From Planctomycetia bacterium (GTDB lineage: Bacteria; Planctomycetota; Planctomycetia; Pirellulales; PNKZ01): a stretch of DNA of 64,000 nt. Of the stretch, positions 17,880 through 39,114 are shown piece by piece (position 1 is the first letter of the stretch; each line of letters starts with the position of its first letter). The position numbers and the translations under genes are program-made. The stretch lies in contig JAIOPP010000084.1 of the NCBI GenBank assembly GCA_021413845.1, forward strand, positions 69,890-133,889, given 5' to 3'. Under the pieces are notes generated by a model that did no database searches, was not told the DNA's origin, and saw nothing but the letters and a program-made list of their open reading frames with translations.

Positions 17880-19076
17880 CTACGCATCGAACTCGAGGCG
17901 GTCCAAAATCGATAGTCCGATCTGTAGCGCACTCGTCGCTGCCGGTGATGGCGCATTGCAGACATTCACGACTCGCCCGAAGTTTTGGATGACGAAATCA
18001 TCGACGATCGAGCCATCGTTCGCGACGGCTTGCGCCCGCACTCCCGCCGGAGCCGCCGTGAGCTGATCGCTCGTGATCTCGGGAATGAGCCGTTGCAAGG
18101 CCGCGACGAACGCTCCTTTGCTGAACGAACGCCGCATTTCGCCGAGGCCCGTGCGCCAATGCTTCGCCGCGAGTTTGCGAAACCCACGATACGCGAGCGT
18201 CTCGCCGAGGTCGCGGAGGTTGATGTCGCGCTTCCGATATCCTTCACGTGCGAACGCCAACACGGCGTTCGGTCCGCATTCCACTTTGCCGCTCGTCATC
18301 CTTGTGAAGTGGACTCCGAGAAACGGAAAGCTTGGGTCGGGCACCGGATAGATCAGATTTCTGCAGAGGTGCTTGGCCTCGGGCTTGAGCTCGTAATACT
18401 CGCCGCGAAACGGCACGATCTTCACTTCCGGCTCGCGCCCGCTCAGCCGTGTCGTCCGATCGGAATGCAGACCGGTGCAGTTCACGATGCGCGACGCCCG
18501 AAATTCACCGGCCGTCGTCGTTACCACAACGCCGTCGGTTTCTTGCCGCATCGCCGTGACCTTGGCCTGCGTCGTGAACTCGCCGCCGGCTTCTTGAATT
18601 CGCTCGACGAGCCGGCGGCAAACTCCGCGATAGTCGACGATGCCCGCCTCCGGCACATGGATCGCTCGAATCCCTGCGGTATACGGCTCGAGTTCGCAGA
18701 GCCGTTCGCGACCGATCATCTCGCATTGCACGCCGTTGGCTTGGCCGCGCTCGAAAATCCGTTGCAAGCCCGGCAACTCTTGCTCGCTACAGGCGACGAT
18801 GACCTTGCCGCAAACGTCGTAAGCGACACCCTCGCGCTCGCAAAACTCTTCCATCAACTTTTTGCCGCTACGACAATTTAGCGCTCGCAACGAGCCCGGC
18901 TTGTAGTAGATTCCGGAGTGCAACACGCCGGAGTTGTGCCCCGTCTGATGAGCGGCGGGCCCGGCTTCTTTCTCCAGCACTCGAATCGTTCGTCCAGGAA
19001 AGCGCTGCGTGAATTGATACGCCGTGGAGAGCCCGACGATTCCTCCGCCGATCACGATCACATCGGATGTTTGCAT
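17880..19076 (-). CDS. lhgO: L-2-hydroxyglutarate oxidase/dehydrogenase (FAD)
   Basis: [18 protein letters not shown] fold; [27 protein letters not shown] signature. Start trimmed to the ATG at 19074-19076. Confidence 0.85.
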
Positions 19077-19111
19077 GCGAGTTCCGAAAAAACAACTTCG
19101 GCGAATCGAGA

Positions 19112-21028
19112 TCAGCGCAACAACAGCAAGCGATAGCGTCGCCGCTCGCCGTCGACATCGCTGTGCCACTCGCCGACGGTCGTCGGGCCGGTCGTGGGTC
19201 GGGCCGCCATCGCCGTGTCGGCCAGCGTCGACAGCGTGGCATCATAGCCGATCGTGCGGCTGCTTGCTCCGTCGTCGGCCTCGTTCTCGGCGAGAAAAAG
19301 ATGGGTAAAACCCGCGGCTTTTAATCGCTGCTCGAACGGTGTCGCGTCGGCGAGCGTCGGGCGATTGTAGCCCGTATAGCGACGATAGATGTTCTCGCGC
19401 GTCCAACGAGGGTAGTAGTAAAACGCGCGTTGTTCTTGGCTCAGCACATGCGCATCGCTCGACAGATTGCGATTGATCCACGCGGCCGAATCGAACGTCG
19501 GCTCGCGACGCGCGAGAAACGCTTCCCGCGATTCCATTCCCGTCGCCACGGCGAATAGAGGGCGTGCTCTCACCATAGGAATCGTTGCAAGGCAGAGCAG
19601 CACGATTACGAAAGCCGAGCGTGCGATGCGTCGTGGCAACGGCGACCAGTTCGCCATCTCGCAGAGAGCCGCCATCGCGATGACGGAGAAGATCGGTACC
19701 AGCGGAAACAGAAACCGCACGTTTTGTCGTAACAGCACGCAGCCCATTCCGTAGAACGCCGCCGTGATCGCAAGCGGTCGCAATTCGCGGCGTCTGGAAG
19801 AAACGATCACGCAGGGGGCCAGCATCAGGAATAACGGCCCGAGTTGTTGCCCGCGCCCCCCGAATCGCTCGGGCTCCATCGTCATCGACCAAGGTGCTAA
19901 GAGCAGAGCCCCGAAGCCACGGCCGAGCGGCGTCTTCGATTCCGGGAAGGTCGACGGTGCTCCCTCGGTAAAGTGTGTGGAGAGAAACGGAAACACCGGA
20001 TCGCCTCGATGATAGCCGGCTCGCAGGTACCAAGGTCCGGCGACGACCGCGGCCGCGGCAACCGCGACGCACGTACCTCGGATCCACTGCGGCCGGCTGG
20101 AAAGTCGCGCTCGCGCGATCGTCGCGAAAGCGAGAGTCGCAAGTACGCCCGCGAAGACGAGACCGGTGTACTTCACGGCCAACGCTCCGCCGACCATCAA
20201 GCCGAGCATCGTTAACGATGATTTTCGCGGCAACGAATCTCGATTCGGATCTTGCGCCGCGCGCAGCCAGGCGGTGAGCGCCAATGTCGTATAAAGCGAA
20301 AGCGCAACGTCGTTCAAGGGGGCGGTCATCTGATTGTTGATGCCGGGCGTAAGCAGCACGATGCAAGCCGCACCGGCGCTCCCGTTCCGTCCTAGCAGCG
20401 GCAAGGCCAGCACATAAGCAGCTCCTGCCAAAAGTGCGCCGCTGAACCAGTGCATCAGTTGAGCACCGCTTGCGCCATCGATCGCGAGCCCCCACAGAAA
20501 CCACATCTCGGCGAGCAACGGAAACGTCGAGTTATCGTTGTCGCGATAGTAAGTCAGCGCATTATCAGCGAGAAACCGCTTCGGCAATTCCAAGTGATAA
20601 CAAAGCGCATCGCCTGCGAGCGGGGGAGCGAGCGCCGCAACAAACGAAGCCGCAAGTGCGATACCGGCGCATCCTGCGACGAGCCTCCGCAAGTTCAAGG
20701 GGAGTGTATCGTCCAGCGTCCTCGCGACCGGTTGTTCGCTCCAAAAACGGCGAAGTTCGCTACGCATCCGAACGACGCCGAGCGTGGCGGCTACGAGCGT
20801 CAGCGCGACGATCCAGTTTTCGTATAGCATGCCGGCCAACCCGAGCAGCCCTAAAAACGTTCCCCACAGCAACAACCCTAATGCCGCTTCCCAGACGACC
20901 CGACCACGCCGCTCGCTCGCGATCGTAACACAGCAATAGGGGAGCGCGATGCTGCCGACCGACCATGCCGCCGTTGCGATCGTCGCGAAGGCGAGCACCG
21001 TACGAAGTTGCAGCAGCAGGGGAATCAT
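19112..21028 (-). CDS. Polytopic membrane protein, GT-C (ArnT/PMT-like) glycosyltransferase candidate
   Basis: About 10 or more hydrophobic helices followed by a ~150-aa soluble C-terminal domain. The YHLELPKRF loop resembles GT39/GT83 families. ATG at 21026-21028; the track uses TTG at 21040. Confidence 0.55.
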
Positions 21029-21056
21029 GGCGTCGCTCAATCGCTCGGAAACCGAA

Positions 21057-21281
21057 TCAATTCGAAACGAAATAGCCGCTCAACATTTTCACGAGATACA
21101 CGACGGCAACCGTCGAGATCCAAATCGCGCCGAGCCAATGTTGCCAAGCTGCCGTCGGATGGCGGCGAGGTTCCGCGTCGGGACGCGAGAGCAAGCTTTT
21201 CACGATCCATTGACGCGCCTTGCGACTTTCCGCCGACATGCGCGAACGCTGCGATTTCGGCTCTCGGATGGGTGCGATCAT
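21057..21281 (-). CDS. Small (74 aa) basic protein with one C-terminal TM helix
   Basis: Its ATG overlaps the stop of the upstream GT9 gene as ATGA (21278-21281). TM segment WLGAIWISTVAVVYLVKML. Confidence 0.35.
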   Translation of the reverse strand: MIAPIREPKSQRSRMSAESRKARQWIVKSLLSRPDAEPRRHPTAAWQHWLGAIWISTVAVVYLVKMLSGYFVSN

Positions 21282-22537
21282 GGTCGTTTATCGTTTCCGA
21301 GTCGCTTGTTCGACTGTGCGTTCGATAAGAAATGCGGCGCCATCGTGGCCGGCGTATCGAGGATTCGTCGAACGGTCTGCATCACATCGTCGGGCGTGAG
21401 TTCGCTCATGCACGGATGATTCGCCACCGGACAACGCGAAGCGAAGCACGGCGCACACGCCACGGCATGACGCACCACGGCAACGCGATGTCCCCACGGT
21501 TGCCATTGGTCCGACACGGTCGAGCCGCTGAATAAGGACACGACGCGCGCACCGGTCGCTGCCGCAAGATGCGCCGGGCCGCTATCGGCACCGATGAACA
21601 GTTCCGTCCGTTGCACGAGCGATGCGAGTTGGTCGAGCGTAAGCCGTCCGGTCCAATCCATGACCCCCGGCCAGAACATTTCTTGCGTGATTTCGCGCCC
21701 CGTTTCGACGTCTCCTTGGCCTCCGACCAAGATCACGCGGGCATGACGTTCAACGATGGCTCGGCCCAAGAGTTCGCGCCAATGCTTCACCGGCCAAGCC
21801 TTCGCTGAAGTTCCGGCGCCGACATGCAAGGCCCACAACGGTCGACTTCCTTGTCGGAACTCGCCGAGCATGTGCGTGACGAAACGAATCGCTTCCGACG
21901 ACGGAACGAACTTCGGCCCTTCCGTGGAGCGGACGTCGGCTCCGAGAGCCGCGAGTAGCGCTCGCCGCGAATCGACTTCATGCCGCCCGCGTACGAACTC
22001 CGCCGAATCCGTAAGCAGGAAACCTCCGCCGGCGCAAGCCCAACCGACGCGCCGCGGGATGCCGCACAGCCGCATCAGCACGGCATTAGGAAAGTCGCCT
22101 CGGACATCGATTGCGAGATCGTAGCATCGAGCTCGAAGCGCCGGAGCCCAGAGATAGAACGGGAACGGCCAACCCGCCTTAAAGTTTCGGCGAAAACGGT
22201 TCCAACGGCTGACGTAAATGCGCCCGATCTCCTTCGAGGCCGCGAAGACTTCGCAATTCCACGGTGCCGCGAGCACATCGATCGTCGCTTGCGGAAACCG
22301 TCGCTTGAGCGACGCAAACATCGAGGTCGTCATGACGGCATCGCCGAGATGATCGAGTTGAATCAAGAGGATCTTGCCGACCGCTTCCGGATCGAGCGGT
22401 TTCGCAGCGGCTTCGCCGAACACCCTTCGCCAAGCATGCAACCATGCCGCGCCGATCGCATCGACGACGGCGAATAGCCATCGCCAGCGCGCGCGGACGA
22501 ACCGGTAGCGAGTTGTGAGAGAGTTATTGAAGTTCAT
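21278..22537 (-). CDS. Glycosyltransferase family 9 (heptosyltransferase-like)
   Basis: ILLIQLDHLGDAVMTTSMFASLKRRFP and LFIGADSGPAHLAAATGARVVSLF motifs. Confidence 0.85.
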   Translation of the reverse strand: MNFNNSLTTRYRFVRARWRWLFAVVDAIGAAWLHAWRRVFGEAAAKPLDPEAVGKILLIQLDHLGDAVMTTSMFASLKRRFPQATIDVLAAPWNCEVFAASKEIGRIYVSRWNRFRRNFKAGWPFPFYLWAPALRARCYDLAIDVRGDFPNAVLMRLCGIPRRVGWACAGGGFLLTDSAEFVRGRHEVDSRRALLAALGADVRSTEGPKFVPSSEAIRFVTHMLGEFRQGSRPLWALHVGAGTSAKAWPVKHWRELLGRAIVERHARVILVGGQGDVETGREITQEMFWPGVMDWTGRLTLDQLASLVQRTELFIGADSGPAHLAAATGARVVSLFSGSTVSDQWQPWGHRVAVVRHAVACAPCFASRCPVANHPCMSELTPDDVMQTVRRILDTPATMAPHFLSNAQSNKRLGNDKRP

Positions 22538-23669
22538 AAGCTGCGCGCGTTGCGACGGCGACCTGTTTCCAAGTAAACGAGTCGGCGACCAACCGTGAAA
22601 GTTCCGCTGAACGAGGGCGTTCGATGGCGCGAAGCACCGCCGAATGAATCTGTTTTAAGTCGTGCGGTAAGACGTACTCCGCGTGCGGTCCGAAATATTC
22701 TTCGGCGCAACCTCCGCGCGGCAGCACGAGCGGCGTTCCGGTCGCAGCGGCTTCGAGTGCGGCCAGTCCGGGCGTCTCGTACCACCCGACGAGCGTCAGG
22801 CAACGACAGGCCGCATAGGCCGAGGCGAGCAACGGGTCGTTGTGCCCTAGAGCGCCGAGAAAGTGAACGTTCGAGTCCGCTTCATGTCGGCATGTCGCCG
22901 CATACTTTTCATGGCCGGGCACGACATCGCCAAGAATCACCAGCGTTTGTCCGGAGTTGCGCAGCGCGCGTATCAAACCGAGTTGGTTCTTGCGCGGCTC
23001 GATCCGTCCGACGCAGAGCACGAAATCGCGCAACCCGAAACGGCGCGTAAAAGCCTGATCGTCGGCGAGTGCGAATCGTTCGTCGAACCCGTTTGGAACG
23101 ACGCGAATCTTCTCGGCCGGTACTTCAAATAACCGCATCAATTGTTCCGCTTCCGACTGCGAGTTCGGCAGCAGCAGATCGGCCGTGTGATAGAGCCGCC
23201 GTCGCCAACTAGATAAGCCCGGCAGCGCGGCCCGCACGGCATATCGCGCGGCGGCGCGACCGCGCGCCAACCAGCCGGCGGATTCTCGCCAAGCATTGCG
23301 CCAGTCGAACCAGGCGATTGTCGACAGCGCGACGCGCTTCCCGTTTCGACGAGCGGCTTCGACGAGCGGCAGAAAGTCTTGTCTGCTTCCGAAAAAATGG
23401 AGCAGGTCGACGTCGTGGTTAAGCGAATCTTCCCATGGTCGCCAGAGCCTCGCGTCGAGTCCCGCTTCGCGTAAGCCGGCGGTCGTTTGCATGAGTTGAA
23501 CTTCCCCACCGCCGGGAGCCGCACAAGCGTCGAACCGTCCGATCGTGCGAACGCGGAAGGGTTTGGTCGACAGTGCGGCCGCTTGCGCAGTCGCTTCTCG
23601 TCCGTGCGTTGTCGCAGCGGCAAGCCAATTGCCGCGATCCTCTGCGGGAGTGTGGTAAACGTTGTGCAT
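22524..23669 (-). CDS. Glycosyltransferase family 4 (GT-B, group 1)
   Basis: GGGEVQLMQTTAGLREAG, VGRIEPRKN, ETPGLAALEAAATGTPLV. The ATG at 23667-23669 overlaps the upstream TGA by 1 nt (TGATG). Confidence 0.85.
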   Translation of the reverse strand: MHNVYHTPAEDRGNWLAAATTHGREATAQAAALSTKPFRVRTIGRFDACAAPGGGEVQLMQTTAGLREAGLDARLWRPWEDSLNHDVDLLHFFGSRQDFLPLVEAARRNGKRVALSTIAWFDWRNAWRESAGWLARGRAAARYAVRAALPGLSSWRRRLYHTADLLLPNSQSEAEQLMRLFEVPAEKIRVVPNGFDERFALADDQAFTRRFGLRDFVLCVGRIEPRKNQLGLIRALRNSGQTLVILGDVVPGHEKYAATCRHEADSNVHFLGALGHNDPLLASAYAACRCLTLVGWYETPGLAALEAAATGTPLVLPRGGCAEEYFGPHAEYVLPHDLKQIHSAVLRAIERPRSAELSRLVADSFTWKQVAVATRAAYELQ

Positions 23670-25153
23670 CAGCCGCGGATCCGTCGCAAAGTTTTCTTCA
23701 TCATGCCCGACCAATGGCCGGCATCGATCTCATCGACCGGCGTCACACGTTCCCAATCAAGGGCCCGACGGAGGATTGCTTTCACGTCGAGCGGCTTCGG
23801 CAGTCGCACCGGCGCGGGTAAGCGATAGGGTTCCCTAGAAGCGAACGAAAGTGCGCCGCGGGCGATGCGCAGCCGTGCCCGATCGAGCGCCACGCTAGCC
23901 GTTCGATCCTCGTCCACGATTTCGAGCGAGCAGGGACATTGCTGCGGCAAGCGATCTGCGGCTACAAGCCAACCATCGTCGGTGGCATACACTTCGAGTT
24001 CGATTCGGTTGCGAAGTCGCCACCAACGTTGGAACTCGAAGAGACTCGTGCGCCATACGTCCGGCAACTGCGAGATCGATCCGAGCACGCGCCGGAGCAA
24101 CTCCGGGTAGCGGCCTACGCGGCCGTCGGGATGGCCGTAGAAGAAAATCGGTATTCGCGCTGCGTGCAAAGAGTCGGCCGCCGCGAGGAAGTGTTCGATC
24201 GTCGCTTCCACGGCTTCCCGTCGCGTCGATTCGTCGAGCACTTGCCTATTCACCGCAAGGTCGGCAGCCGCTTCCAGAACGATACCGAGGCACACCGGAT
24301 GGATCGGGATCTGTAAGACGTCGGTTCTCGTCGGGAAAAAAGGGAGCTCGTCGTAAGCGAAACCGAACTCGGAGCTATGCGTGATGCCGAGCGTTTCGAG
24401 AGCCGTCGCGAGGCCTGGGTTGTAGCGTCCGTGCGGAGCTGCGAAGCCGGCGGGCTCAATGCCGCAACCGCGAAGCACGGCGATGCCGCGCTCGATATTC
24501 GCGATGTTTTCCGCTGCCGTGCGGTAAGTGTGATGACGGTAGCCATGCGAGCCGATGTCGAGTCCTGCGAGTTTGCGAACGGCATCTGCGTGTCGTTCGT
24601 GAGTCGAGCCGCAGACGAAGTGCGTCGTCATCGACGAATGCGGCGCGATTGCGTCGAGCGTCCGCTCGAAATCTTCGGCGACGAATTCATCGTGATCGAA
24701 ACGAAAATTGGCGACGGTCCGATAGGGCCGCGGATAGGGTGCAACGCGCATCCACACACCGCCGCGCCTGTCGACTTCCGCGCGTAACAAGTTCATCACC
24801 TGTTCGCGAATCGCTCGTCGATCCATGGCGGCAATCTCTTCCGTCGCATCCCATTCGCCGACTCGCCAGGCAGCCCGCGAGGCTACCGCGGTTTCAATCG
24901 AGGCGAAAGCATCGCTGCCCAGGCCTTGATCTGCGAGGCGTTTTCGAAGCGTATCGACGTCGATCGCTTGCTGCTGCGAGGTTAAGAGTGGGTGATCTCG
25001 ACGCGTATGCGAATCGAAGAGCACGAACCTGCCGTTCGACCGGCCCGGCTGGAATTTTACGGTTGGAATTCCCTCTTGCGCGAGCATCGAAGCGAGCGCG
25101 TCGGGCACCGCGTCGAGCAATAGCGGCAGCAGCGGAGGAGTCGCGGGCTTCAT
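23669..25153 (-). CDS. Polysaccharide deacetylase (CE4/NodB-like) with extra N- and C-terminal regions
   Basis: FRFDHDEF..., IGSHGYRHHTY, GFAAPHGRY: NodB-like Asp/His motifs in the central domain. Confidence 0.7.
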   Translation of the reverse strand: MKPATPPLLPLLLDAVPDALASMLAQEGIPTVKFQPGRSNGRFVLFDSHTRRDHPLLTSQQQAIDVDTLRKRLADQGLGSDAFASIETAVASRAAWRVGEWDATEEIAAMDRRAIREQVMNLLRAEVDRRGGVWMRVAPYPRPYRTVANFRFDHDEFVAEDFERTLDAIAPHSSMTTHFVCGSTHERHADAVRKLAGLDIGSHGYRHHTYRTAAENIANIERGIAVLRGCGIEPAGFAAPHGRYNPGLATALETLGITHSSEFGFAYDELPFFPTRTDVLQIPIHPVCLGIVLEAAADLAVNRQVLDESTRREAVEATIEHFLAAADSLHAARIPIFFYGHPDGRVGRYPELLRRVLGSISQLPDVWRTSLFEFQRWWRLRNRIELEVYATDDGWLVAADRLPQQCPCSLEIVDEDRTASVALDRARLRIARGALSFASREPYRLPAPVRLPKPLDVKAILRRALDWERVTPVDEIDAGHWSGMMKKTLRRIRG

Positions 25154-25986
25154 GCGGCTTCTCCTGCGCTAAGGCTCAAGCGCGCAACCGTCGCCGGTTC
25201 GCGATGCTCATGTCGCTCGGCGAGCATCTGCCGCCAGAGTCGGCGATGCTTCGTCGCCAATACCCATTCCGAGTAGCCGCTTAAGCCGCAAAATGTCCAG
25301 CCGACGGGACCGTCGAGCCAGCCTTGTTTCCAAACGAGCCGTCGAAATAGTTCTAGGCCGGGGCGCAGCCAAGCGTCGGTAAACGACGGCCGTTGCCAGC
25401 GAGCAACGCGGGCCTCGGCTTCCAGCGTCGTGTAGCGTTGCATCTTGCGATGAAAAGCTTCCGTCGTCGGGAGCGTGAAATGTTCGAGATGCGCATCGAG
25501 CTTGCCGACCGCGCCTGTGATCGCAAATCGTTCGTGGACGGCACCGCCCCAGCGTCCGGAGCCGCGACGCATGAGCCTGAGCGGGATGTCGTTTTGCGTG
25601 CCGCTGAAGCGAAATCGCCGACCAAAGATCGTGCTGCGGATCGGCACGCGATAGCCGGAACAAGCTTCGGTTCGAATGCGATGGCGAACCTCGGCGACAA
25701 GCCGCTCGGTCGAGCGTTCGTCGGCGTCGATGAAGAAGATCCAATCGCTATGGGCACCGTCGATAGCGGCGTTGCGCTGGTTGGCGAAGTTATCGAACGG
25801 ACGCTCGATCACGTGTGCTCCGTGGCGCCGAGCGACTTCGACGGATCGATCGCGCGAGCCGCCGTCGACGACGACGATTTCGTCGGCCCATGCGAGGCGC
25901 GGAAGCAGATCGTCGAGGTGCGATTCCTCGTCGAGTGCGATCACGGCCGCGGTAATCGAGTTTGCGACGTCGAGCTTCGACTTCAC
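25150..25986 (-). CDS. Glycosyltransferase family 2
   Basis: ITAAVIALDEE, VVVDGGSRDRS, FFIDADER (DxD). The GTG start at 25984-25986 overlaps the upstream TGA (GTGA). Confidence 0.85.
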   Translation of the reverse strand: MKSKLDVANSITAAVIALDEESHLDDLLPRLAWADEIVVVDGGSRDRSVEVARRHGAHVIERPFDNFANQRNAAIDGAHSDWIFFIDADERSTERLVAEVRHRIRTEACSGYRVPIRSTIFGRRFRFSGTQNDIPLRLMRRGSGRWGGAVHERFAITGAVGKLDAHLEHFTLPTTEAFHRKMQRYTTLEAEARVARWQRPSFTDAWLRPGLELFRRLVWKQGWLDGPVGWTFCGLSGYSEWVLATKHRRLWRQMLAERHEHREPATVARLSLSAGEAA

Positions 25987-27767
25987 GCGACGACCCTCAC
26001 TGTCGCGCGGATTCGAGCCGTTCTCGTGAGCAAAAAGAATCGCGCAATCCAGCGCGCGTTGTAGTAGCAGGCGATCAAGGCGAGTTCGGCGGTGAGATAA
26101 CCGGTTGCGAGCGCGGCTGCGGTCAGATGAATGCGCACGTCCGCATTTGCCGGTAGATGGTAGAGATACCGCGGCCACGACATCGCTTGCGGGTGTGCGT
26201 CGGCCGCTTGGTTCGATGCGTCCGCTGCGGTCGTGTCAGCGAGTTGAGTGGGGCCGAATAGCGTCTCTCCGGCGGCGAGGCCGTACATCAGCAAGTATTT
26301 TCCGAATAGAAATCCGATTAGGCAGACCCAAGGCCATTGCGATTGTGTCGCGTTCGCAGCGCAAACGGCCATGCAGACGTGCAGCCCGAGATCGACCGCT
26401 TCATCGACGTTGGCATCGAGCCAAGCCCCGAGCGGCGTTGCGCGGGCTTGTCGTCGGGCGAGAATTCCGTCGGCCCGATCGAAGAACCAAGCGACCAAGA
26501 CGAGGATTGCAGCGACAAGCCCGTAGGTTGGCGACGCAAGGAGGCACGCGGCTGCCGAGCAGGCGCATATCAGACCTAGAAGCGTAAGATGCCACGGACG
26601 AACGCGTGTTTCGGCAAGCCCCTTGGAGAATAGGGCAGCTGCCGGACGGGAATACCATCGAGCGAGCGGATAATTCACGGCGCGACGTGCTTCTTCGGCG
26701 TCGAGTTCCGTCGCTTGATCACGACATGATTGAGCAGCGGTAATTACGAGCAGGCGAGTCGGTGAATGCCGTGAGAAGAATTCTCGCTCGCGAGCCGCCG
26801 AGTCAGCGCCGGTCGAGGCTTGGAAGCGGACGTTGCCCGAGCGCGCTTGCCATACGGCCCGTGCTTCCGAATAGGCGCGCAGGAATGGGAAGCGATCGCC
26901 GACGGGGGGTCCTATAGCGCGCACAAGATCGCGAGCAGCGCGTAGCGGCAGTCGGCAAAAATACGCCGCACGATGCCGCAGGCAGCGCAGGTTTTTCCAT
27001 TGAAATAAGAGGGTGTTTCGGAGTGCTAGTCGGTCGGATTCGGTGTTGCCGAAGACACGGCCGAACGTCGCACAGCCGCGATGCAAAGCCACGGCTTCCG
27101 GTATGTAAACGGCCTGATATCCGGCTAGAAAACCTCGATAAGCGAAATCGAGATCCTCGATTCGGCCCGGCAGGTACAGCGGGTCGAAGCCGCCGAGTGC
27201 GACGAAGATGCGACGATCGACGGCCAGCGCCGCGCCTGCCGATGCGGTCGGGCCCGGCAGGTCGGCAACCTCTTCGCAGCCGGCAAACAGAGACGTCGCT
27301 TGTACGATTCCGTGGCGCATTACAACCGAGGTCTTGAAGCCTTCATAGGTCACGCCGTCGAACAGGTAGCAACGAGGCGCGGTCATGAAGATCTGCTCGT
27401 TCGCAAATGTCGGTTCGCAAGGAGCGTCTGAGGAATGCTGCGCGAGGAGCGGTTCGACGAGCGGATCGATGGCATCGTCGGCGAGCTTAATGTCGTTGTT
27501 CAGGAGCACAAGGACACGGCTCGAGAGTTCGCGCGCAATGGTATTGAACGAGGAGAGGCCGTCGTTCGGGAGGGAGCGAACCGCGACCGTTGGAAACTCG
27601 GCGGCGAGCCAGGCCGTAGGGTCGTCGCTCGATCGATTGTCGACGACGGTCACCCGGCAAGTGTGGCGCGAGGCGGCGGCCGCACGTACGATGCTCGGCA
27701 AACACTCGGCCAGCAGTGCGCGGCCGTCGTAGTTCAACACCAAGACATCGATGTCGGCAGCGTCCAT
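25983..27767 (-). CDS. Fusion protein: N-terminal GT2 glycosyltransferase plus C-terminal CDP-alcohol phosphotransferase membrane domain
   Basis: N-terminus: DVLVLNYDG, VVDNRSSDD, LLNNDIKL (GT2). C-terminus: canonical D-x2-DG-x2-AR-x8-G-x3-D-x3-D = DRADGILARRQARATPLGAWLDANVD (26403-26480) within TM helices. ATG at 27765-27767 preceded by GGGGGAAG. Confidence 0.8.
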   Translation of the reverse strand: MDAADIDVLVLNYDGRALLAECLPSIVRAAAASRHTCRVTVVDNRSSDDPTAWLAAEFPTVAVRSLPNDGLSSFNTIARELSSRVLVLLNNDIKLADDAIDPLVEPLLAQHSSDAPCEPTFANEQIFMTAPRCYLFDGVTYEGFKTSVVMRHGIVQATSLFAGCEEVADLPGPTASAGAALAVDRRIFVALGGFDPLYLPGRIEDLDFAYRGFLAGYQAVYIPEAVALHRGCATFGRVFGNTESDRLALRNTLLFQWKNLRCLRHRAAYFCRLPLRAARDLVRAIGPPVGDRFPFLRAYSEARAVWQARSGNVRFQASTGADSAAREREFFSRHSPTRLLVITAAQSCRDQATELDAEEARRAVNYPLARWYSRPAAALFSKGLAETRVRPWHLTLLGLICACSAAACLLASPTYGLVAAILVLVAWFFDRADGILARRQARATPLGAWLDANVDEAVDLGLHVCMAVCAANATQSQWPWVCLIGFLFGKYLLMYGLAAGETLFGPTQLADTTAADASNQAADAHPQAMSWPRYLYHLPANADVRIHLTAAALATGYLTAELALIACYYNARWIARFFLLTRTARIRATVRVVA

Positions 27768-27836
27768 GCTTCCCCCTTGCAAGAACTCGTCCTGAGTTCC
27801 GCGAGGGAGCAATTTAGAAGCGCGGCGAGGGTCGGG

Positions 27837-28802
27837 TCAAGATGATACGCCGGCATCGGCTCCGACGAACTGCGGTGTTTCGGCATAGGTAACCGTTGCC
27901 GTTACCGACAGCGGATCTGCCGGCACGGGCTCAGCGAACCACCAACCATCGCGAAACTCCAGCGTGTCGGTCTCGCGAACGCGATACCACGCGGCAAATT
28001 CTCGCTCGGCTTCGTCGTTCTTCAATCCTCGCACGACAAGGACCAACGCTAGAACCGGTGCCGGCAGCGCCATCGTGCCGACATAAATACCGGCCAGAAA
28101 TGGGCCCGACTCCAAAAAGAAAATACGAAAGATACCGACGATCGCCAAAGCGAACATCACGATATGCGTTTCATACGCCTTGAGCACCAGCCATTTAATC
28201 CATCCGATCGGCGAACGGCGCGGCATCGTCGCAGCCTCGGGGCGGCCGCCCCCTCCGCCGACGATGCGCAGTTCGCCGTGCAGCAGCTTCAGACGTTGCA
28301 CGAACGCCTTGTAGCGGGCATCGTGGCGCAGCCCGAGGATGAGCGCACTCCAGCCCCAAAGAATTCCCGCGACGCACCAAATCGAAAAACCGGTCTCGCG
28401 CATCAGGCCGAAGCCGAGCCCGATCGGTAATAGCATGTTCACGCTATGGTGCATTAAATAGTCGATCATCGTCCCATCGAGCGAAGCGGTGCGATGCCAT
28501 CGAGCGAGCTGACCATCGACATGGTCGAGTAGATACCACAACGGCAAGAGCAGCGCGCCGATGAGCCAGCCCCAAGCGGTGCCGAAACCGAATGCGACGA
28601 TCGCGGCCGATGCGACGAGCATCGCTCCGGCCGTCGCCTGATTCGCCGACATGCCCCATGGCGCAACGATACTTGTAATGTGCAACGCCGCAGGACGTCC
28701 GAGCCGTCGAGCGGTCCAAGAGCCGAGCCGATTTGGATCCGGTTTCAAACACCGCCGACGAAACGTCTCCCAATCGGTCAAAGAAGCGATGGTTTCATCC
28801 AT
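27837..28802 (-). CDS. CDP-alcohol phosphotransferase-family membrane protein (variant motif)
   Basis: DHVDGQLARWHRTASLDGTMIDYLMH (28449-28526) fits DxxDGxxAR-x8-G-x3-D, but the last Asp position reads His. Polytopic membrane protein. Confidence 0.7.
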   Translation of the reverse strand: MDETIASLTDWETFRRRCLKPDPNRLGSWTARRLGRPAALHITSIVAPWGMSANQATAGAMLVASAAIVAFGFGTAWGWLIGALLLPLWYLLDHVDGQLARWHRTASLDGTMIDYLMHHSVNMLLPIGLGFGLMRETGFSIWCVAGILWGWSALILGLRHDARYKAFVQRLKLLHGELRIVGGGGGRPEAATMPRRSPIGWIKWLVLKAYETHIVMFALAIVGIFRIFFLESGPFLAGIYVGTMALPAPVLALVLVVRGLKNDEAEREFAAWYRVRETDTLEFRDGWWFAEPVPADPLSVTATVTYAETPQFVGADAGVSS

Positions 28803-30663
28803 GTGCAGCTTCCTCGCTTATCGCCGGTGCATGCAATCGACCGAAATGCGAATCGGGAATGCATTGCGACGCGTCATGCGATCGGTCGAACAACAATTCG
28901 ACGATGCGAACCGCGGCCTTCTTCGTCGTTTTTTCGGTGGTTTCCGGTGTCGATGGATTCGTTGTGGGGGACGTGCGGCGCAGGGCCATCTGCAGTAACG
29001 GGCGAAGCTCTACGAGCAAACGTGCCGAACCGGCGAGGCCGTACCAGTCGGCGGGGAGTACTTGGCCCGACCCTTGCGGCAAGAGTTGGATGACGGGCAA
29101 GCCTGCCGCCGCGGCATCGACGCCGGCGCTCGACGCGCAACTTAAGACGCAATCGCTCTCGGCTAAGACTTCGGCTAAGGACTGTTTCGCGATCGTACGA
29201 TGGCGTAGAGTCGGAAACTGCTTTAAGGTGCGCGTGAGAATCGGATCTTGGATAGCGCGGGGATGTGGCTTTACGATCAGTTCGGCATCTCCGAGTTCCG
29301 CGACCGCCGCGCAAGCTATGTGCAGCATCGCGGCGTAAGTTCGACTGGTTAAATGAAACTCAACGGCGTCGGGCCGGTCGTCGCGCGGCGGCACCGTCGC
29401 CAGGAGGACGATGCGGTGCTTAGCGTCGGAAGTTGAGTTGCGATTTTCCGGAGAGGCGCGATTCCGTAATGCTTTGCAAGCAACCTGTTGCTGGGCCGGT
29501 GCGCCGGTAACGACGATACGGTCTCTCGCCACGCCCCAGGCTTCGAGTTGCCGCCGCGTTCCTTCGTTCCACGCGCAGAATAGATCGGCTGCTAAAGGCG
29601 CGAAACCGAATCGAATGCAACAGACTCCATGCTGTACGACGAACGACGGAATGCCGAGCCGACTCGCATGTGCCACGGTAATACGAGCCAGAGGCGTAGC
29701 ATCTTCGTCCACTACGACATGCGTCGGCCGTAGCGAAGCTAGGTGCTCGCCGACGCGCCGCCATTGTCGTGCTTGAGCGATCGCCAATCGCTTACGCCAG
29801 CGGCGGTACCAAGTCTCGACGACATCGCCGAGATCGATATCGCCGTAGGCGACCGTCTCTCGTAGGAGCGTCTGCGGAAAAGCGTCGACGGCCGTCTCTT
29901 CATCATCGCAAGTAAGCCAGGCGATGCCGCTCGCTCGACGTTCGATCCACGCGCCGACGGCGAAACGGTCGTAAAGCCAGGCAGCATGCGCACCACGGTC
30001 GAGCACGGCATCGCACACGTCGTCGAGAATCCGCGGATTGCCTACGAACAAGACTCGGGCACGATGGTCGGAAGCGGCAGGAGAGAATTCGTGCGTTCGC
30101 GCCGCACCACGGTTCACACCGCGGTTGGCGAAGATCCAAGCGAGCGCTCGCCGCCACCAAGCATTTCGCGGCACCGAAAACGGCGCGACGGTTTCATCAT
30201 CGCGCATAATGAAATGGATTCGTAACGTGAAGCCGTAGGTTTGCGACATCGCGCGCCAGAGCGCGACGTATTCGTTGTCGCAGCGCGGGGAGACATAAAG
30301 CTCGATTTTCGCAGAAACGTCGTCGTTGGGGCAATTCTGCCAAAAGGCGATGATTCTAAGCCAACGCAGCGCTTCATATCGCAAACGAAGAATGTTGATA
30401 TCGGCGAAGTTCGGTCGCACACTACCAATGTGTGAAGATTCGGCCGGCGCAGCGGCGGCACCGATCTTCGTCGCCAATCGTTCCGCTTCGATGTCTAGAT
30501 GCGCGAAGTGGGAGGCGTCGATATAGGTGTCGAGTGATATGAAATTTTTCGAAACGCCGGCTTCCCAATCCCCTTCCAAGAGCAGTAGTCGTTCGCTCGC
30601 TGATGGCGAATCCGGCTGGAGCAACAGGTCGGGTACCAAGTTGCGGCGTGCGAAAACCAGCAT
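28795..30663 (-). CDS. GT-B-like capsule/teichoic-type transferase candidate (KpsS/KpsC- or TagF-like C-terminal half), 622 aa
   Basis: AELIVKPHPR plus VLSCASSAGVDAAAAGLPVI resemble the K-x-HP and C-terminal Rossmann motifs of the Capsule_synth and Glyphos_transf families. True start is the ATG at 30661-30663 (MLVFARRN), 2 nt after the HAD stop. The longer 838-aa ORF overlaps the HAD gene. Confidence 0.5.
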   Translation of the reverse strand: MLVFARRNLVPDLLLQPDSPSASERLLLLEGDWEAGVSKNFISLDTYIDASHFAHLDIEAERLATKIGAAAAPAESSHIGSVRPNFADINILRLRYEALRWLRIIAFWQNCPNDDVSAKIELYVSPRCDNEYVALWRAMSQTYGFTLRIHFIMRDDETVAPFSVPRNAWWRRALAWIFANRGVNRGAARTHEFSPAASDHRARVLFVGNPRILDDVCDAVLDRGAHAAWLYDRFAVGAWIERRASGIAWLTCDDEETAVDAFPQTLLRETVAYGDIDLGDVVETWYRRWRKRLAIAQARQWRRVGEHLASLRPTHVVVDEDATPLARITVAHASRLGIPSFVVQHGVCCIRFGFAPLAADLFCAWNEGTRRQLEAWGVARDRIVVTGAPAQQQVACKALRNRASPENRNSTSDAKHRIVLLATVPPRDDRPDAVEFHLTSRTYAAMLHIACAAVAELGDAELIVKPHPRAIQDPILTRTLKQFPTLRHRTIAKQSLAEVLAESDCVLSCASSAGVDAAAAGLPVIQLLPQGSGQVLPADWYGLAGSARLLVELRPLLQMALRRTSPTTNPSTPETTEKTTKKAAVRIVELLFDRSHDASQCIPDSHFGRLHAPAISEEAAHG

Positions 30664-30665
30664 GG

Positions 30666-31439
30666 TCAGGCTGCCTCGCGAAAAGCGGATTCGTCGCCGA
30701 GGCGCGTCTCGAAGAGTTGCAGCAATTCTTCGAAGCGATGGAGAAACACCTCGGCCACGGCATCGCGCTCGTAGTGAATCGCAACGGCAGGCATGCCCGC
30801 CCGTCGCGCGCCGATCAATTCCTCGGCGTCGTGGCCGACGAACGCCGTTTGTGCCGGTGCGAGGCGCAGTCGCTCGATGGCAGTTCGATAGCAAACGCCG
30901 GCGGGTTTCGTTTGTTTCAGATCGGCCGACGAGACGACGGCGCTGAAGTAGCGACCGATCCCCATCTGCGCGAGCCGTGGCTCGATCGCCTCGGCCGGCG
31001 ATTCCGAATCGCTCAGCACCGCCAGTCGCAGGCCGTTCGCATGCAGTCGTTCCAGCGTGGCTCGGACTCCCGGAAACGGCCGAACATCTTGCTCGAAGTC
31101 CCGCTTTTGTCGGTTGGAAGCCAAGATCACTTCGTCGACTTGGCTTTCGGTCAGGCCGGTGTCGCGAAGGAAGGTATGAAACGCCTCGGCGTAGTCGCGC
31201 TCGCCGCGGTGCACGGCATCGAGATAGTCGCGGTCCCACACTTGAAAAAAGCTGCGGTAGGTGGTTTGCAGCCCCATTCGATGAAGCTGTTGCAGGAGCC
31301 ATCGCCGCCACACGGTTGCATCGAACAAGACATCGCCCATGTCGAACACGATGCCGCGCACTTTTTGAAACCGCGGCGACGCATTAATACCGTCGTCGTC
31401 GTGCGGCGTGTCGTCGTGAGAGAAAAGCCGGAGCGGCAT
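30666..31439 (-). CDS. HAD-superfamily hydrolase (phosphatase)
   Basis: Motif I IVFDMGDVL; motif III/IV region VGHDAEELIGARRAGM. Confidence 0.8.
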   Translation of the reverse strand: MPLRLFSHDDTPHDDDGINASPRFQKVRGIVFDMGDVLFDATVWRRWLLQQLHRMGLQTTYRSFFQVWDRDYLDAVHRGERDYAEAFHTFLRDTGLTESQVDEVILASNRQKRDFEQDVRPFPGVRATLERLHANGLRLAVLSDSESPAEAIEPRLAQMGIGRYFSAVVSSADLKQTKPAGVCYRTAIERLRLAPAQTAFVGHDAEELIGARRAGMPAVAIHYERDAVAEVFLHRFEELLQLFETRLGDESAFREAA

Positions 31440-31483: not shown

Positions 31484-32536
31484 CTATTGAACATCGCTAC
31501 GGTAGATCGTTTCGTCCGCGTCGATGTCGCGGAGCAATCTGCGGCCGACAATCGTCTCTCGCTGCGTCCAGGCGATACCGTCGCCCGGCGATTTCAGCGT
31601 GAACATCGACTCTTCGAGCACGGTGCCGGCCGGAAGCGAGCGCACCGTCACGAGGCTGCGTCCGAGTTTGTTCCGCGTCGGTTCGACCTCGGCGATGGCC
31701 GGCTTTTCGGCACTCCCTAGGGCTAGCTCGATGCGGCGAATCTGTTCGATGAGCGTGCGCAGCTCTTCCGGTTCGGCCGAGCAAGCATGGTCGGTCCCTT
31801 TCAGCGTTCGATCGAGCGTCAGATGCTTTTCGATGATCGACGCACCGAGCGCCACTGCGGAAGTCGCGATGAGCGTGCCTGTCGTATGATCGGAGAAACC
31901 GACGACCGAGTCGTAGCGTCGACGCAGCGTTTCGATGCTGCGCAAATGTGCCTGATCGTCGGGCGTCGGATAGAGCGATGTGCATTGCAACACGGCCGTT
32001 GGGCAGCGTGCCTCGGCCGCCACGGTCATCGCGGCATCGATCTCCGACCACGACGACATGCCCGTGGAAAGGATGAGCGGCTTACCCAGCTCGGCGACGA
32101 ACCGCACGAGCGGCAGGTTATTCAAATCGCGCGAGGCGATCTTAAATGCGTCGACCTCGGCGTTCGCAAATTCCCGTGCGCTGGCAACGTCGCACACCGT
32201 GACGACGAAATGCATGCCATGCGATCGGGTTCGCGCCGCGAGCGCTAAGTGCGTCTCGACCGACAGTTCAAGCACGCTCCGATGTGCGCCGTAGGTGTCG
32301 CCGAACGAATGGGCCGAGTCGTAGCGCCGATTGCGTGACGCCTTCGTAAGCTCCGAGGGGAGGTGTCGTTTGACGAGTTTCACGGCGTCGGCACCGGCCC
32401 AGGCCGCGGCGTCGACGAGTTGTTCGGCTAATTCTCGGCTGCCGTTATGGTTCTGTCCGAGTTCGGCGACGACGAACGTCGGGCTTCCGGGCCCGATCGA
32501 GCGGCGCGCATTGATTCGAAGCGAATTGCCGTGCAT
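31484..32536 (-). CDS. NeuB-family nonulosonic/ulosonic acid synthase with C-terminal SAF domain
   Basis: FVVAELGQNHNGS..A..LVDAAAWAGADAVK; GFSDHT; C-terminal SAF-like SLVTVRSLPAGTVLEESMFTLKSPGDGI. ATG at 32534-32536 preceded by GGAAAGGA. Confidence 0.85.
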   Translation of the reverse strand: MHGNSLRINARRSIGPGSPTFVVAELGQNHNGSRELAEQLVDAAAWAGADAVKLVKRHLPSELTKASRNRRYDSAHSFGDTYGAHRSVLELSVETHLALAARTRSHGMHFVVTVCDVASAREFANAEVDAFKIASRDLNNLPLVRFVAELGKPLILSTGMSSWSEIDAAMTVAAEARCPTAVLQCTSLYPTPDDQAHLRSIETLRRRYDSVVGFSDHTTGTLIATSAVALGASIIEKHLTLDRTLKGTDHACSAEPEELRTLIEQIRRIELALGSAEKPAIAEVEPTRNKLGRSLVTVRSLPAGTVLEESMFTLKSPGDGIAWTQRETIVGRRLLRDIDADETIYRSDVQ

Positions 32537-32911
32537 GAGCGGAATCCTTTCCGCAAAGTGTTGTCCGAGCGAAATCATTTCACTCGGTTGCGAGACTGCT
32601 AGTTGCGCGACGATGTTCGAGGTCGTAGCGGGGCGGGAGTTTAGCGATGCCCGATTCGCGACGTCAAGATAAGACGTGTGATAAACAGGCGTTCTTAAAG
32701 CGATAGCGTGGCGCTCGCTCGGCTCAAGCCTAAGTTTGCTAGCGTCCGTTCGTTGCGATTCGCGCCCCTGTGCGGAACACACCTTGGCCCGACTGCAGAG
32801 CGACGATACAATCCCGCCCTCTTGCGTCGGGCATAGTAGCGGCCGAATCTGCCGATTCTGCGTCCGAGCATGGTTTGCAAATCATCGAAACGTCAGGCAT
32901 GGAGGCCGAAC

Positions 32912-37102: not shown

Positions 37103-37993
37103 ATGTCTAATGCAGAATCACCGGGTGAGCGTCTTCGTGCGGCTGTTCGAGGCGATACGTTGCTGGTGCCCGGCGCTTTCAACGCGTTGACGGCACGGCT
37201 CATCGAGGCGACCGGTTTTCAAGCCGCATACCTTTCCGGGGCGGCATTCTCTGCCGGAGCATTGGCACTCCCGGATATCGGGCTCTTCACGCTCAGCGAA
37301 CTTGCCGAAGAGACACGACGGCTAAGCCATGCCGCACCCCGATTGGCGTGGATCGTCGATGCCGATACCGGATTCGGCGAAGCGGTTAATGTGGAGCGGA
37401 CGGTCGGCGAACTTGAAGCGGCCGGCGCGGCGGCGATTCAACTCGAAGATCAACGCTTGCCGAAACGCTGCGGCCACCTGTCGGGCAAGTCGCTCGTCGA
37501 CACGGCCGAGATGTGTGCGAAGTTGCGCGCAGCCGCTGCGGCGCGTCGCGATAAACAAACCATTATCTTGGCTCGCACCGATGCCCGCGGGGTCGAAGGT
37601 TTCGAGGCTGCGGTCGAGCGGGCGAAGCGGTATCTCGAAGCCGGCGCGGATTGGATCTTTCCCGAGGCGTTGGAAACGCCGGATGAATTCTCGCGGTTTG
37701 GCGCCGCCGTAAAGGTGCCGCTCGTGGCGAACATGACGGAGTTCGGCCGGAGCCCGTTGCTGACGCAAGCGGAACTCACCCAGCTTGGCTATGCGGCGGC
37801 TCTGATGCCCGTGACGACTTTACGAATCGCGATGCGCGCGGTTGAGCAAGCACTGACGACGATGTATGCCGAAGGAACTCAGAAGTCGCTTGTGGGGAAG
37901 ATGCAAACCCGGCAGGAACTTTACGAACTGCTCGGCTATTCCGATTTCGAGGCTCGCGACCAAAGCTACTTCCAAGGAGATGGACGGAAATGA
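37103..37993 (+). CDS. prpB: 2-methylisocitrate lyase
   Basis: VPGAFNALTARLIE, DADTGFG, EDQRLPKRCGHLSGK, ILARTDA. Confidence 0.9.
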   Translation: MSNAESPGERLRAAVRGDTLLVPGAFNALTARLIEATGFQAAYLSGAAFSAGALALPDIGLFTLSELAEETRRLSHAAPRLAWIVDADTGFGEAVNVERTVGELEAAGAAAIQLEDQRLPKRCGHLSGKSLVDTAEMCAKLRAAAAARRDKQTIILARTDARGVEGFEAAVERAKRYLEAGADWIFPEALETPDEFSRFGAAVKVPLVANMTEFGRSPLLTQAELTQLGYAAALMPVTTLRIAMRAVEQALTTMYAEGTQKSLVGKMQTRQELYELLGYSDFEARDQSYFQGDGRK

Positions 37994-39114
37994 AAGCTGC
38001 CACCGGCGGTAATGCGGGAGGTTTGGAAGGAATCGTCGCAGGGCAAACGGCGGTCTGCACTCTGGCAGGCCGGATGCTTTATCGCGGCTATCCGATCGAG
38101 GAACTCGCAGCCGAGTCGACGTTCGAGGAAGTCGCCTATCTGCTGTTATACGGCGAGTTGCCTTCGTCCACGGCCTTAGCCGAGTTTCGGATTCGCATCG
38201 GCGCGGAGATGACGTTGCCGCCGGCGATCGTCGACACGCTCCGCTCCATTCCGGCAGCGACGCCAGGCATGGATGTCATGCGCACCGGTTGCAGCATGCT
38301 CGCGCATTTCGATGCGGAGACGGCCGACGATACCCGCCCGGCGAACTTGCGCAAAGCGGAACGGTTGCTCGCGAAGTTGCCGTTGATCATGGCGACGAAA
38401 TATCGGCTCGATGCCGGACTAAAGCCGCTCGCCGCGGAGCCGGACCGCTCGATCGCGGAAAACATTTTGCGCCAGATCACCGACCGTAAGCCGGAACCTC
38501 GGGCCGTGCAGGCGCTCGACACTTCGCTCATTCTCTACGCCGAACACGAATTCAATGCCTCCACTTTCACGGCTCGTTGCGTGGCTTCGACCCTCGCCGA
38601 TCTACACTCGGCGGTCACCGCGGCGATCGGCGCGTTGAAGGGGCCGTTGCATGGGGGTGCGAACGAGCGTGTGCTTGAAGTGCTGCGACAAGTCGGCGCC
38701 CCGGCGAACGCGGAGCCGTGGATTCGCCAAGCTTTGGCGAACAAGGTTCGCATCATGGGCTTCGGGCATCGCGTTTATAAACACGGTGACCCTCGCACCG
38801 TGATCATTACGCCGCTCTGCGCCGAACTGGCGCAACTGACCGGTAACGAAGCGATGGAGCAAACCGCAGCGACGATCGAGCGGATCATCGTCGCCGATAA
38901 AAGTCTGCCGGCAAACGTCGATTGGCCGAGTGCGCGGCTGTATCACTACCTGGGCCTACCCGTGTCGCTCTATACGCCGCTCTTCGTCTGCGCGCGTGTT
39001 TCCGGCTGGTCGGCTCACGTGATGGAGCAGTTAGAGAACAACCGGCTCATTCGCCCGGCGGCGGAATACATCGGGCCCGAGCAGCGGAAGTTCGTACCGA
39101 TCACAAAGCGCTAA
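37990..39114 (+). CDS. prpC: 2-methylcitrate synthase / citrate synthase family
   Basis: GLEGIVAGQTAV, YRGYPIEEL, HAEHEFNAST, GPLHGGANE, MGFGHRVYK..DPR. ATGA overlap with prpB. Confidence 0.9.
   Translation: MKAATGGNAGGLEGIVAGQTAVCTLAGRMLYRGYPIEELAAESTFEEVAYLLLYGELPSSTALAEFRIRIGAEMTLPPAIVDTLRSIPAATPGMDVMRTGCSMLAHFDAETADDTRPANLRKAERLLAKLPLIMATKYRLDAGLKPLAAEPDRSIAENILRQITDRKPEPRAVQALDTSLILYAEHEFNASTFTARCVASTLADLHSAVTAAIGALKGPLHGGANERVLEVLRQVGAPANAEPWIRQALANKVRIMGFGHRVYKHGDPRTVIITPLCAELAQLTGNEAMEQTAATIERIIVADKSLPANVDWPSARLYHYLGLPVSLYTPLFVCARVSGWSAHVMEQLENNRLIRPAAEYIGPEQRKFVPITKR

Follow-up and report, generated by a model that had tools for sequence, protein, structure and literature searches.

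To our knowledge, almost all CDP-alcohol phosphotransferases (CDP-APs) with a known role build phospholipid head groups or polyol-phosphate solutes. The 64-kb stretch of a Planctomycetia bacterium genome analysed here (64,000 nucleotides of contig JAIOPP010000084.1, called the window below) encodes a CDP-AP domain fused to a family-2 glycosyltransferase (GT2), and this gene belongs to a conserved cassette of further glycosyltransferases. The linkage between the two activities is robust, while both domains are ordinary members of their superfamilies and the architecture is common within the lineage. The fusion protein is very probably bifunctional, with both activities directed at one membrane-bound intermediate on the way to an envelope glycoconjugate. 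A CDP-AP locked to a glycosyltransferase in a seven-gene cassette points to a chemically undescribed glycoconjugate, which could be a phosphoglycolipid anchor or a core decorated with phosphodiesters.

In sequence, the CDP-AP domain is closest to AF2299 from Archaeoglobus fulgidus (PDB 4O6M), a CDP-AP of unknown physiological substrate, which aligns from the juxtamembrane helix to transmembrane (TM) helix 4 with an E-value of 2.4e-15. It shares the full signature motif and a cytoplasmic N-terminal domain ahead of the six-TM core; however, that N-terminal domain is not a glycosyltransferase, the protein is archaeal and lies outside any glycosyltransferase cassette, and the similarity ends after TM4. 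IPCT-DIPPS (PDB 4MND) likewise carries a cytoplasmic, Rossmann-like nucleotide-binding domain N-terminal to its CDP-AP and performs two consecutive steps with one polypeptide. Its partner domain is a cytidylyltransferase that makes the CDP-alcohol donor, whereas the partner here has the GT-A fold and supplies no donor. The preliminary description of this DNA knew CDP-AP fusions with cytidylyltransferases only, a view that is too narrow, as a CDP-AP-HAD fusion has been predicted in Prevotella veroralis (PMC9246714). The alternative inositol-lipid cluster of Bacteroides vulgatus and Prevotella combines an NTP transferase, a CDP-alcohol phosphatidyltransferase and a HAD protein, all with predicted functions (PMC9246714). 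The likeness to the present locus is that a CDP-AP fuses with the enzyme of a neighbouring step and that a nucleotidyltransferase-like gene, a HAD gene and a CDP-AP paralogue co-occur in many relatives; however, this trio goes with a His-variant paralogue rather than with the GT2-fused domain, and the fusion partner is different.

In the mycobacterial pathway from PgsA1 through PimA/PimB to GT-C enzymes, which yields phosphatidylinositol mannosides (PIM), lipomannan and lipoarabinomannan, a head group installed by a CDP-AP is glycosylated in the cytoplasm, flipped and extended by GT-C. The PIPS of this route is the second-best relative of the domain studied here, and basic residues on TM4, TM5 and TM6 appear to occupy like positions in the two. 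The route differs in that its enzymes are encoded by separate genes and use GT4 rather than GT2, and no inositol-phosphate synthase is linked here. A second precedent for building an envelope glycan on a glycerophospholipid with cytoplasmic glycosyltransferases is KpsS/KpsC, which prime group 2 capsules on (lyso)phosphatidylglycerol, as phosphatidylglycerol-(Kdo)n, Kdo being 3-deoxy-D-manno-octulosonate (PMC10148158). A weakly KpsC-like GT-B protein lies two genes upstream of the fusion; the capsule system differs in using ordinary phosphatidylglycerol from housekeeping PgsA, without a CDP-AP, and in exporting its product by an ABC transporter. The GT2 half resembles WbbL/GlfT2-type enzymes, which combine a GT-A fold with a C-terminal helical extension and act on lipid-linked acceptors, and several homologues bear the automated JGI name 'N-acetylglucosaminyl-diphospho-decaprenol L-rhamnosyltransferase'. 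In contrast to those enzymes, the metal motif here is NND instead of DxD, and the fusion protein gave no match to the curated WbbL model in NCBIfam.

That a single gene holds both a GT2 and a CDP-AP domain, as had been described from the DNA alone, is confirmed at each point. The enclosing open reading frame (ORF) covers 25983..27812 on the minus strand; the ATG at 27767, four bases after the ribosome-binding site AAGGGGGA, is taken as the true start because homologues begin at the same Met and this site precedes it. Both Pfam gathering cut-offs are passed: PF00535 (Glycos_transf_2) scores 26.8 bits against 23.3 over residues 8-109, and PF01066 (CDP-OH_P_transf) 42.1 bits against 22 over residues 391-486. 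The GT2 strings quoted earlier are all in place, namely VLVLNYDG (residues 8-15, nt 27723-27746), VVDNRSSDD (residues 41-49, nt 27621-27647) and NNDIKL (residues 90-95, nt 27483-27500), and the CDP-AP string DRADGILARRQARATPLGAWLDANVD (residues 430-455, nt 26403-26480) fits D-x2-DG-x2-AR-x8-G-x3-D-x3-D at all positions. The full motif is found a single time when the window is translated in six frames, and in none of 200 shuffles.

None of the eight signature residues varies among the 29 aligned homologues, and all 71 loci that have the domain carry them. The same alignment shows invariant residues in the GT2 domain, D43/N44/D48, N90-N91-D92 and E204-D205-x-D207 (27147-27158), and in the last three TM helices of the CDP-AP domain, K490 (TM4), D543/R545 (TM5) and Y568/R572/W573 (TM6). 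The invariance of the CDP-AP signature together with the TM4-TM6 residues indicates strong purifying selection on the active site. The metal/nucleotide-sugar position of the GT2 domain reads N90-N91-D92 rather than D-x-D throughout (29/29); single-Asp variants of DxD are known within GT2.

An AlphaFold2 (AF2) model based on the homologue alignment (mean predicted local distance difference test, pLDDT, of 88; predicted TM-score 0.65) shows a GT-A domain, a helical extension at residues 235-365, a juxtamembrane helix and six TM helices; with both catalytic residue sets invariant in the 29 homologues, this confident prediction supports the two-domain reading of the preliminary description. The CDP-AP helices span residues 373-384 (juxtamembrane), 391-411, 413-439, 445-474, 478-503, 542-555 and 558-586, with pLDDT mostly above 90, and the sole poorly predicted stretch is the loop at residues 504-540. 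In Foldseek the model retrieves ppGalNAc-T2 (9.6e-12) and GlfT2 (1.3e-8), both GT-A with a probability of 1.00, as well as IPCT-DIPPS (1.5e-8), and PDB profile matches of the GT-A domain include chondroitin synthase and DPM synthase. From its soluble N-terminal glycosyltransferase domain, the protein is inferred to have its N-terminus on the cytoplasmic side. The positions of these domains and of the neighbouring genes are collected in the table.

Table. Domains of the GT2/CDP-AP fusion gene and genes of the surrounding locus, with window coordinates
Feature	Coordinates	Strand	Basis
GT2+CDP-AP fusion gene, 594 aa: GT2 (GT-A), helical linker, six-TM CDP-AP	25983..27767	-	ORF, Pfam, AF2
GT-A catalytic domain, aa 1-~230	27078..27767	-	Invariant alignment columns, Foldseek, PDB profile matches
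GT2 helical extension and linker, aa 235-365	26673..27065	-	AF2 helices
CDP-AP domain, aa 373-586: juxtamembrane helix, TM1-TM6	26010..26651	-	AF2 helices, invariant columns
CDP-AP signature D430-x2-D433-G434-x2-A437-R438-x8-G447-x3-D451-x3-D455	26403..26480	-	Invariant in 29/29 homologues
GT2b, second GT2 glycosyltransferase, 278 aa	25150..25986	-	PF00535 52 bits; syntenic in nearly all loci
CE4-type polysaccharide deacetylase/DUF2334, 494 aa	23669..25153	-	PF01522 38 bits, PF10096 27 bits; syntenic
GT4 glycosyltransferase	22524..23714	-	Pfam Glycos_transf_1/Glyco_transf_4; weak NCBIfam matches to MshA and GlcNAc-PG synthase; syntenic
GT9, heptosyltransferase-like	21278..22537	-	PF01075 124 bits
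Small ORF, 74 aa, C-terminal TM helix, overlaps GT9 stop	21057..21281	-	ORF list
GT-C (PMT/ArnT-like) polytopic membrane glycosyltransferase	19112..21040	-	PMT 30 bits, PMT_2 28.6 bits, many hydrophobic segments; syntenic
Stand-alone CDP-AP paralogue, 321 aa, directly upstream of fusion	27837..28802	-	PF01066 27 bits
GT-B-fold protein, 622 aa, beside NeuB	28795..30663	-	AF2 pLDDT 84.6
NeuB-family nonulosonic-acid synthase with SAF domain	31484..32782	-	Pfam NeuB 243 bits; TIGR03569 304 bits against cut-off 399.65

An artefact in which two genes were joined by an assembly or sequencing error might be considered, as most relatives keep the domains as separate genes with a 4-nt overlap and one indel could fuse them. 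However, contigs from Logan, an independent assembly of a freshwater metagenome run (about 9x), span positions 25900-27900 including the domain junction with 0 differences and 0 gaps. A metatranscriptome from the sample yielded no contig here, but at 10 Mb it is too small to be informative. Among 5.8 billion proteins searched, both Pfam domains occur together in more than 90 clusters (at 90% identity), with 96-100% query coverage and 45-74% identity; where named, these come from Pirellulales, Thermoguttaceae or Planctomycetota metagenome-assembled genomes (MAGs). Every one of the nearest relatives (67-74% identity) is itself a fusion whose linker can be aligned, and 24 fused loci derive from many samples and assemblers. 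The frameshift that the preliminary description had named as a possible refutation is thereby ruled out, and the probability left to an artefact is negligible.

Loci were gathered by scanning one genome per GTDB species, which gave 80 loci, and separately fetched loci and the window bring the set to 88; each was classed according to whether one ORF holds both motifs, that of the GT2 and that of the CDP-AP. The 80 species-level loci are all from Planctomycetota MAGs bar one labelled Nealsonbacteria. Among the 88 Planctomycetota loci, 24 are fused, 47 are split, 13 have no CDP-AP and 4 are truncated. The gene boundary in split relatives falls at the C-terminal end of the linker, and for 28 of the 47 split pairs the stop codon of the GT2 and the start codon of the CDP-AP overlap by 4 nt, which is the classic arrangement for translational coupling. 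When the GT2 domain is placed on a neighbour-joining tree, the fused forms are spread over at least six separate clades, scattered among split forms, implying that fusion or fission happened repeatedly. Such recurrence, a Rosetta-stone signal, indicates that the two proteins act together in a complex, and it makes the window gene one state of a widespread pair instead of a singular invention. The signal names two activities to be assayed jointly, with modest practical impact until the product is identified. Some of the split calls are probably sequencing errors, most are not.

Several loci of this set deserve separate mention. The locus labelled Candidatus Nealsonbacteria (L066, JABMRB010001388.1) carries the planctomycete cassette, and is therefore probably mis-binned. 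In the Nanopore-based MAG represented by L005/L025 (JASGKB010000010.1), NeuB and GT4 are fragmented as well, so that its split state probably comes from frameshift errors. A second type of fusion, in which GT2a (the GT2 of the pair) is joined directly to GT2b in a protein of about 615-650 aa with no CDP-AP between, is seen in two Pirellulales MAGs that both belong to the 13 CDP-AP-less loci (L052, nt 714-2666; L069, nt 3737-5578).

The architecture is thus common (more than 90 clusters, 24 of 88 loci); a literature search found no paper that gives a function to the GT2/CDP-AP fusion or that describes the cassette or its product. The labels in public databases are unspecific ('CDP-alcohol phosphatidyltransferase family protein', 'glycosyltransferase'), with a double COG label at JGI, 'GT2 family glycosyltransferase/phosphatidylglycerophosphate synthase'. 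It had also been concluded that a sugar and a phospho-alcohol are both added to the same product. Here the linkage of the activities stands, given the 47 adjacent split pairs, the 28 overlaps of 4 nt and the recurrent fusion; a single product carrying both groups is an interpretation of that linkage, and the 13 related cassettes without a CDP-AP bear against regarding it as settled.

The polytopic domain might serve as a membrane anchor or scaffold that holds GT2a near a lipid-linked acceptor, with catalysis secondary or lost. The GT2-only homologues of split loci (340-378 aa) have no TM segment of their own, which would suit such a role, and GT2a works without a CDP-AP in some genomes. However, the eight signature residues are invariant throughout the alignment and in every locus with the domain, as are the TM4-TM6 residues across the alignment, and in split loci the CDP-AP is a separate protein, so covalent anchoring is impossible there. 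An anchor is accordingly considered very unlikely.

The identity of the substrates can be approached through the relatives of the CDP-AP domain. After AF2299, the PDB profile matches are mycobacterial PIP synthases (about 1.5e-11) and IPCT-DIPPS (6e-8), and those to CEPT1, PssA and CHPT1 are far weaker. In NCBIfam, AIPS, PIPS and IPCT-DIPPS are the top three families for 18 of 18 members scanned, all far below their equivalog cut-offs; the window protein reaches 29 bits against a cut-off of 580 for the IPCT-DIPPS model (NF041135). Judged by these profiles, the domain is near the inositol-phosphate clade (AF2299, AIPS, PIPS, DIPPS) and a member of no characterised family. Characterised members of the AIPS/PIPS/DIPPS clade take inositol-1-phosphate as acceptor. 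In MtPIPS, S132/K135 (TM4), R155 (TM5) and R195 (TM6) form the acceptor pocket, where inositol-1-phosphate is bound through its phosphate by the arginines (PMC4634129). The invariant K490, R545 and R572 on TM4, TM5 and TM6 of the fusion suggest, by analogy with that pocket, a small anionic acceptor. As the similarity ends after TM4, this putative phosphate-binding triad is an analogy of position and not an alignment, and a residue-level alignment of TM5-TM6 with PIPS or AF2299 was dropped for the same reason.

A route consistent with these relatives can be proposed. The CDP-AP domain, at the cytoplasmic face of the inner membrane, would take the housekeeping donor CDP-diacylglycerol and pass its phosphatidyl group on to a small polyol or sugar that is probably phosphorylated, as inositol-1-phosphate is, with release of CMP. 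This acceptor would be kept in place by the invariant Lys of TM4 and the Arg residues of TM5 and TM6. The tethered GT2 would then add a sugar from a nucleotide-sugar to the new head group. The resulting phosphoglycolipid primer would be extended by GT2b, GT4 and GT9 and de-N-acetylated by the CE4 protein, after which the glycolipid would be flipped and finished in the periplasm by GT-C. The logic would parallel the assembly of lipoglycans from phosphatidylinositol through PIM, or that of glycosylphosphatidylinositol (GPI) anchors, and the fusion would fix two consecutive enzymes in a 1:1 membrane-bound complex. A primer-making enzyme would be needed, since no initiating transferase of the WecA/WbaP type (PF00953, PF02397) is found in the cassette, whether that of the window or those of L001-L007, the loci whose genes were called. 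This specific chemistry, in which the CDP-AP uses CDP-diacylglycerol and the GT2 glycosylates the head group to prime an envelope phosphoglycolipid, is put forward tentatively, with a probability somewhat below one half.

Several observations weigh against such a primer. In 13 of the 88 loci, mostly from one clade, the CDP-AP is missing and GT2a, GT2b, CE4, GT4, GT9 and GT-C are kept, whereas an enzyme that makes the primer should be indispensable unless another lipid substitutes. GT9 lies near lipopolysaccharide (LPS) heptosyltransferase II, and this favours an acceptor of LPS-core type over a phosphatidyl-polyol. The window protein scores only 55 bits against a cut-off of 180 with the AIPS equivalog (NF040950) and 39.3 against 170 with that of PIPS (NF045883), and the profile alignments to PIPS and AF2299 end after TM4. 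Neither the Pfam-scanned ORFs of the window nor the genes called in L001-L007 include an inositol-1-phosphate synthase. A literature search on inositol lipids in Planctomycetes found nothing relevant.

Some of the same facts favour a decoration reaction instead, in which the CDP-AP would move a phospho-alcohol from a soluble CDP-alcohol onto the sugar just added by the attached GT2. The product would be an LPS-core-like or other lipid-linked oligosaccharide bearing, for example, glycerol-P, inositol-P, ethanolamine-P or choline-P, as an optional and lineage-variable modification. A dispensable CDP-AP alongside a full set of retained glycosyltransferases would be expected in this case, and GT9 is close to the heptosyltransferase II threshold (TIGR02195, 125 bits against 134.6) and matches PDB 1psw over its full length (4.4e-21). 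A lipid hydroxyl as acceptor has precedent, as CDP-APs of the Kennedy pathway use one (CEPT1 and CHPT1, the weak PDB matches mentioned above). However, a small inositol-phosphate is the acceptor of all the nearest relatives, the invariant Lys/Arg/Arg pocket points to a small molecule with negative charge, and we know of no characterised CDP-AP that acts on a glycan acceptor. The genes that might supply a CDP-alcohol also bear on this alternative. The extended cluster contains a CDP-AP paralogue and a nucleotidyltransferase-like gene, both variably present, which would suit it; of the 48 non-duplicate loci whose upstream sequence extends to at least 7 kb, 25 have the nucleotidyltransferase-like gene, all 25 of which also have the His-variant paralogue, and 2 of these 25 lack a GT2-linked CDP-AP. 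In 12 of the 48, on the other hand, the GT2-linked CDP-AP occurs without the nucleotidyltransferase, flippase, GT-B protein or paralogue; no cytidylyltransferase is linked in these loci, and none is present in the 64-kb window. A CDP-AP with no linked nucleotidyltransferase in these 12 loci and in the window makes the housekeeping donor CDP-diacylglycerol the simplest inference, and decoration is regarded as possible but doubtful.

A third alternative is that the protein makes a compatible solute, a glycosylated polyol-phosphodiester like the di-myo-inositol phosphate of hyperthermophiles and its mannosylated form, with the CDP-AP acting as DIPPS does and the GT2 glycosylating the soluble product. 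DIPPS is among the nearest relatives, and Thermotoga has a glycosyltransferase that acts on di-myo-inositol phosphate. No inositol-1-phosphate cytidylyltransferase or synthase is linked, however, and the source is a freshwater metagenome; furthermore, GT9, GT4, CE4, the small TM protein, GT-C and often a Wzx-like flippase alongside indicate an exported lipid-linked product. Such a solute is considered highly improbable. Returning to the lipid-linked alternatives, the locus could, with rather low probability, represent an undescribed Pirellulales phosphoglycolipid of PIM/GPI type primed by a dedicated CDP-AP, or else the first CDP-AP to put a phospho-alcohol on a glycan. If either version is true, the cassette and the His-variant paralogue define new reaction specificities in the CDP-AP superfamily, in hosts that are known from metagenomes only.

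The cassette itself was delineated by tblastn of the window proteins against all loci, which shows one gene set common to nearly every locus, in about 80 species-level genomes, in the order GT2a-[CDP-AP]-GT2b-CE4 deacetylase/DUF2334-GT4-GT9-small TM ORF-GT-C (PMT-like). The GTG start of GT2b overlaps the TGA stop of the fusion (GTGA); the protein has no TM segments, and its PDB matches are GmaR (2.5e-9) and SunS. The small ORF has a counterpart of 71-93 aa in the same slot between GT9 and GT-C in L001, L003 and L005-L007. No PDB sequence relative was found for the GT-C protein, and the window and the loci with called genes contain neither the Kdo transferase WaaA nor lipid A genes. An RmlD-like gene lies near the cassette in the window. 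The combination of GT2b, CE4 and GT-C was also considered as an amino-sugar route of the ArnC/ArnD/ArnT or FlmF2/NaxD/FlmK type; this is unsupported for GT2b, given the lack of TM segments, the relationship to GmaR and SunS and scores below 25 bits with polyprenyl-phosphate hexose synthase models, and for the CE4 and GT-C proteins alone such a role is an unproven possibility. A possible likeness of GT2b to the core glucosyltransferases WaaE/KdtX was left aside. Just downstream of GT-C, an L-2-hydroxyglutarate oxidase gene (17880-19169, minus strand; 558 bits against a cut-off of 299) is syntenic with the cassette in L001, L005, L008, L009 and L019 at 65-76% identity, with no obvious functional link.

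Upstream of the fusion, the stand-alone paralogue carries the motif D-x2-DG-x2-AR-x8-G-x3-D-x3-H, in which His stands in place of the fourth Asp, as it does in 44 of 44 orthologues, and its family is restricted to Planctomycetota MAGs. The fourth Asp of the CDP-AP motif is the proposed catalytic base, and in MtPIPS the D93N substitution at the equivalent position nearly abolishes activity (PMC4634129). The paralogue is thus a natural test of the mechanism proposed for the CDP-AP family; it would use a CDP compound made by the linked nucleotidyltransferase. In many relatives the extended cluster is headed by this nucleotidyltransferase-like protein of 249 aa (L006, 3682-4431; L007, 3661-4410; about 28 other loci), followed by a HAD hydrolase, the GT-B protein and a Wzx-like flippase. 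The 249-aa protein is weakly like CMP-Kdo synthetase (KdsB), MobA and IspD, at most 34 bits; neither its gene nor the Wzx-like flippase was found in the 64-kb window, where the variable upstream module also holds a HAD hydrolase, a NUDIX hydrolase and a DUF6798 protein.

The 838-aa ORF at 28795-31311 (minus strand) is over-extended, and the conserved GT-B-fold protein within it is the 622-aa form. Its best Foldseek matches are UDP-GlcNAc 2-epimerases/NeuC and MurG, and its only PDB sequence match is KpsC (3.5e-4). It was not retained as a KpsC-like Kdo transferase, the sequence match being weak and Foldseek placing the 2-epimerases/NeuC and MurG first. As it sits beside NeuB, it probably belongs to the nonulosonic-acid branch, as epimerase or transferase.

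Outside these modules, a PEP_mutase/isocitrate-lyase-family gene (37103-37993) was considered as a phosphonate route feeding a CMP/CDP-phosphonate donor, and was rejected because a citrate synthase gene adjoins it; the two (37103-39114, plus strand) form a pair like PrpB/PrpC of the methylcitrate cycle. The ORF at 43400-44992 (plus strand) joins a family-3 solute-binding domain (SBP_bac_3) to an ABC permease domain (BPD_transp_1) and is followed by an ABC ATPase (45106-45852). A 1652-aa protein (48076-53034, plus strand) combines DUF4011, an AAA_11/AAA_12 helicase, REase_MTES_1575 and DUF3320, and is a large helicase-nuclease.

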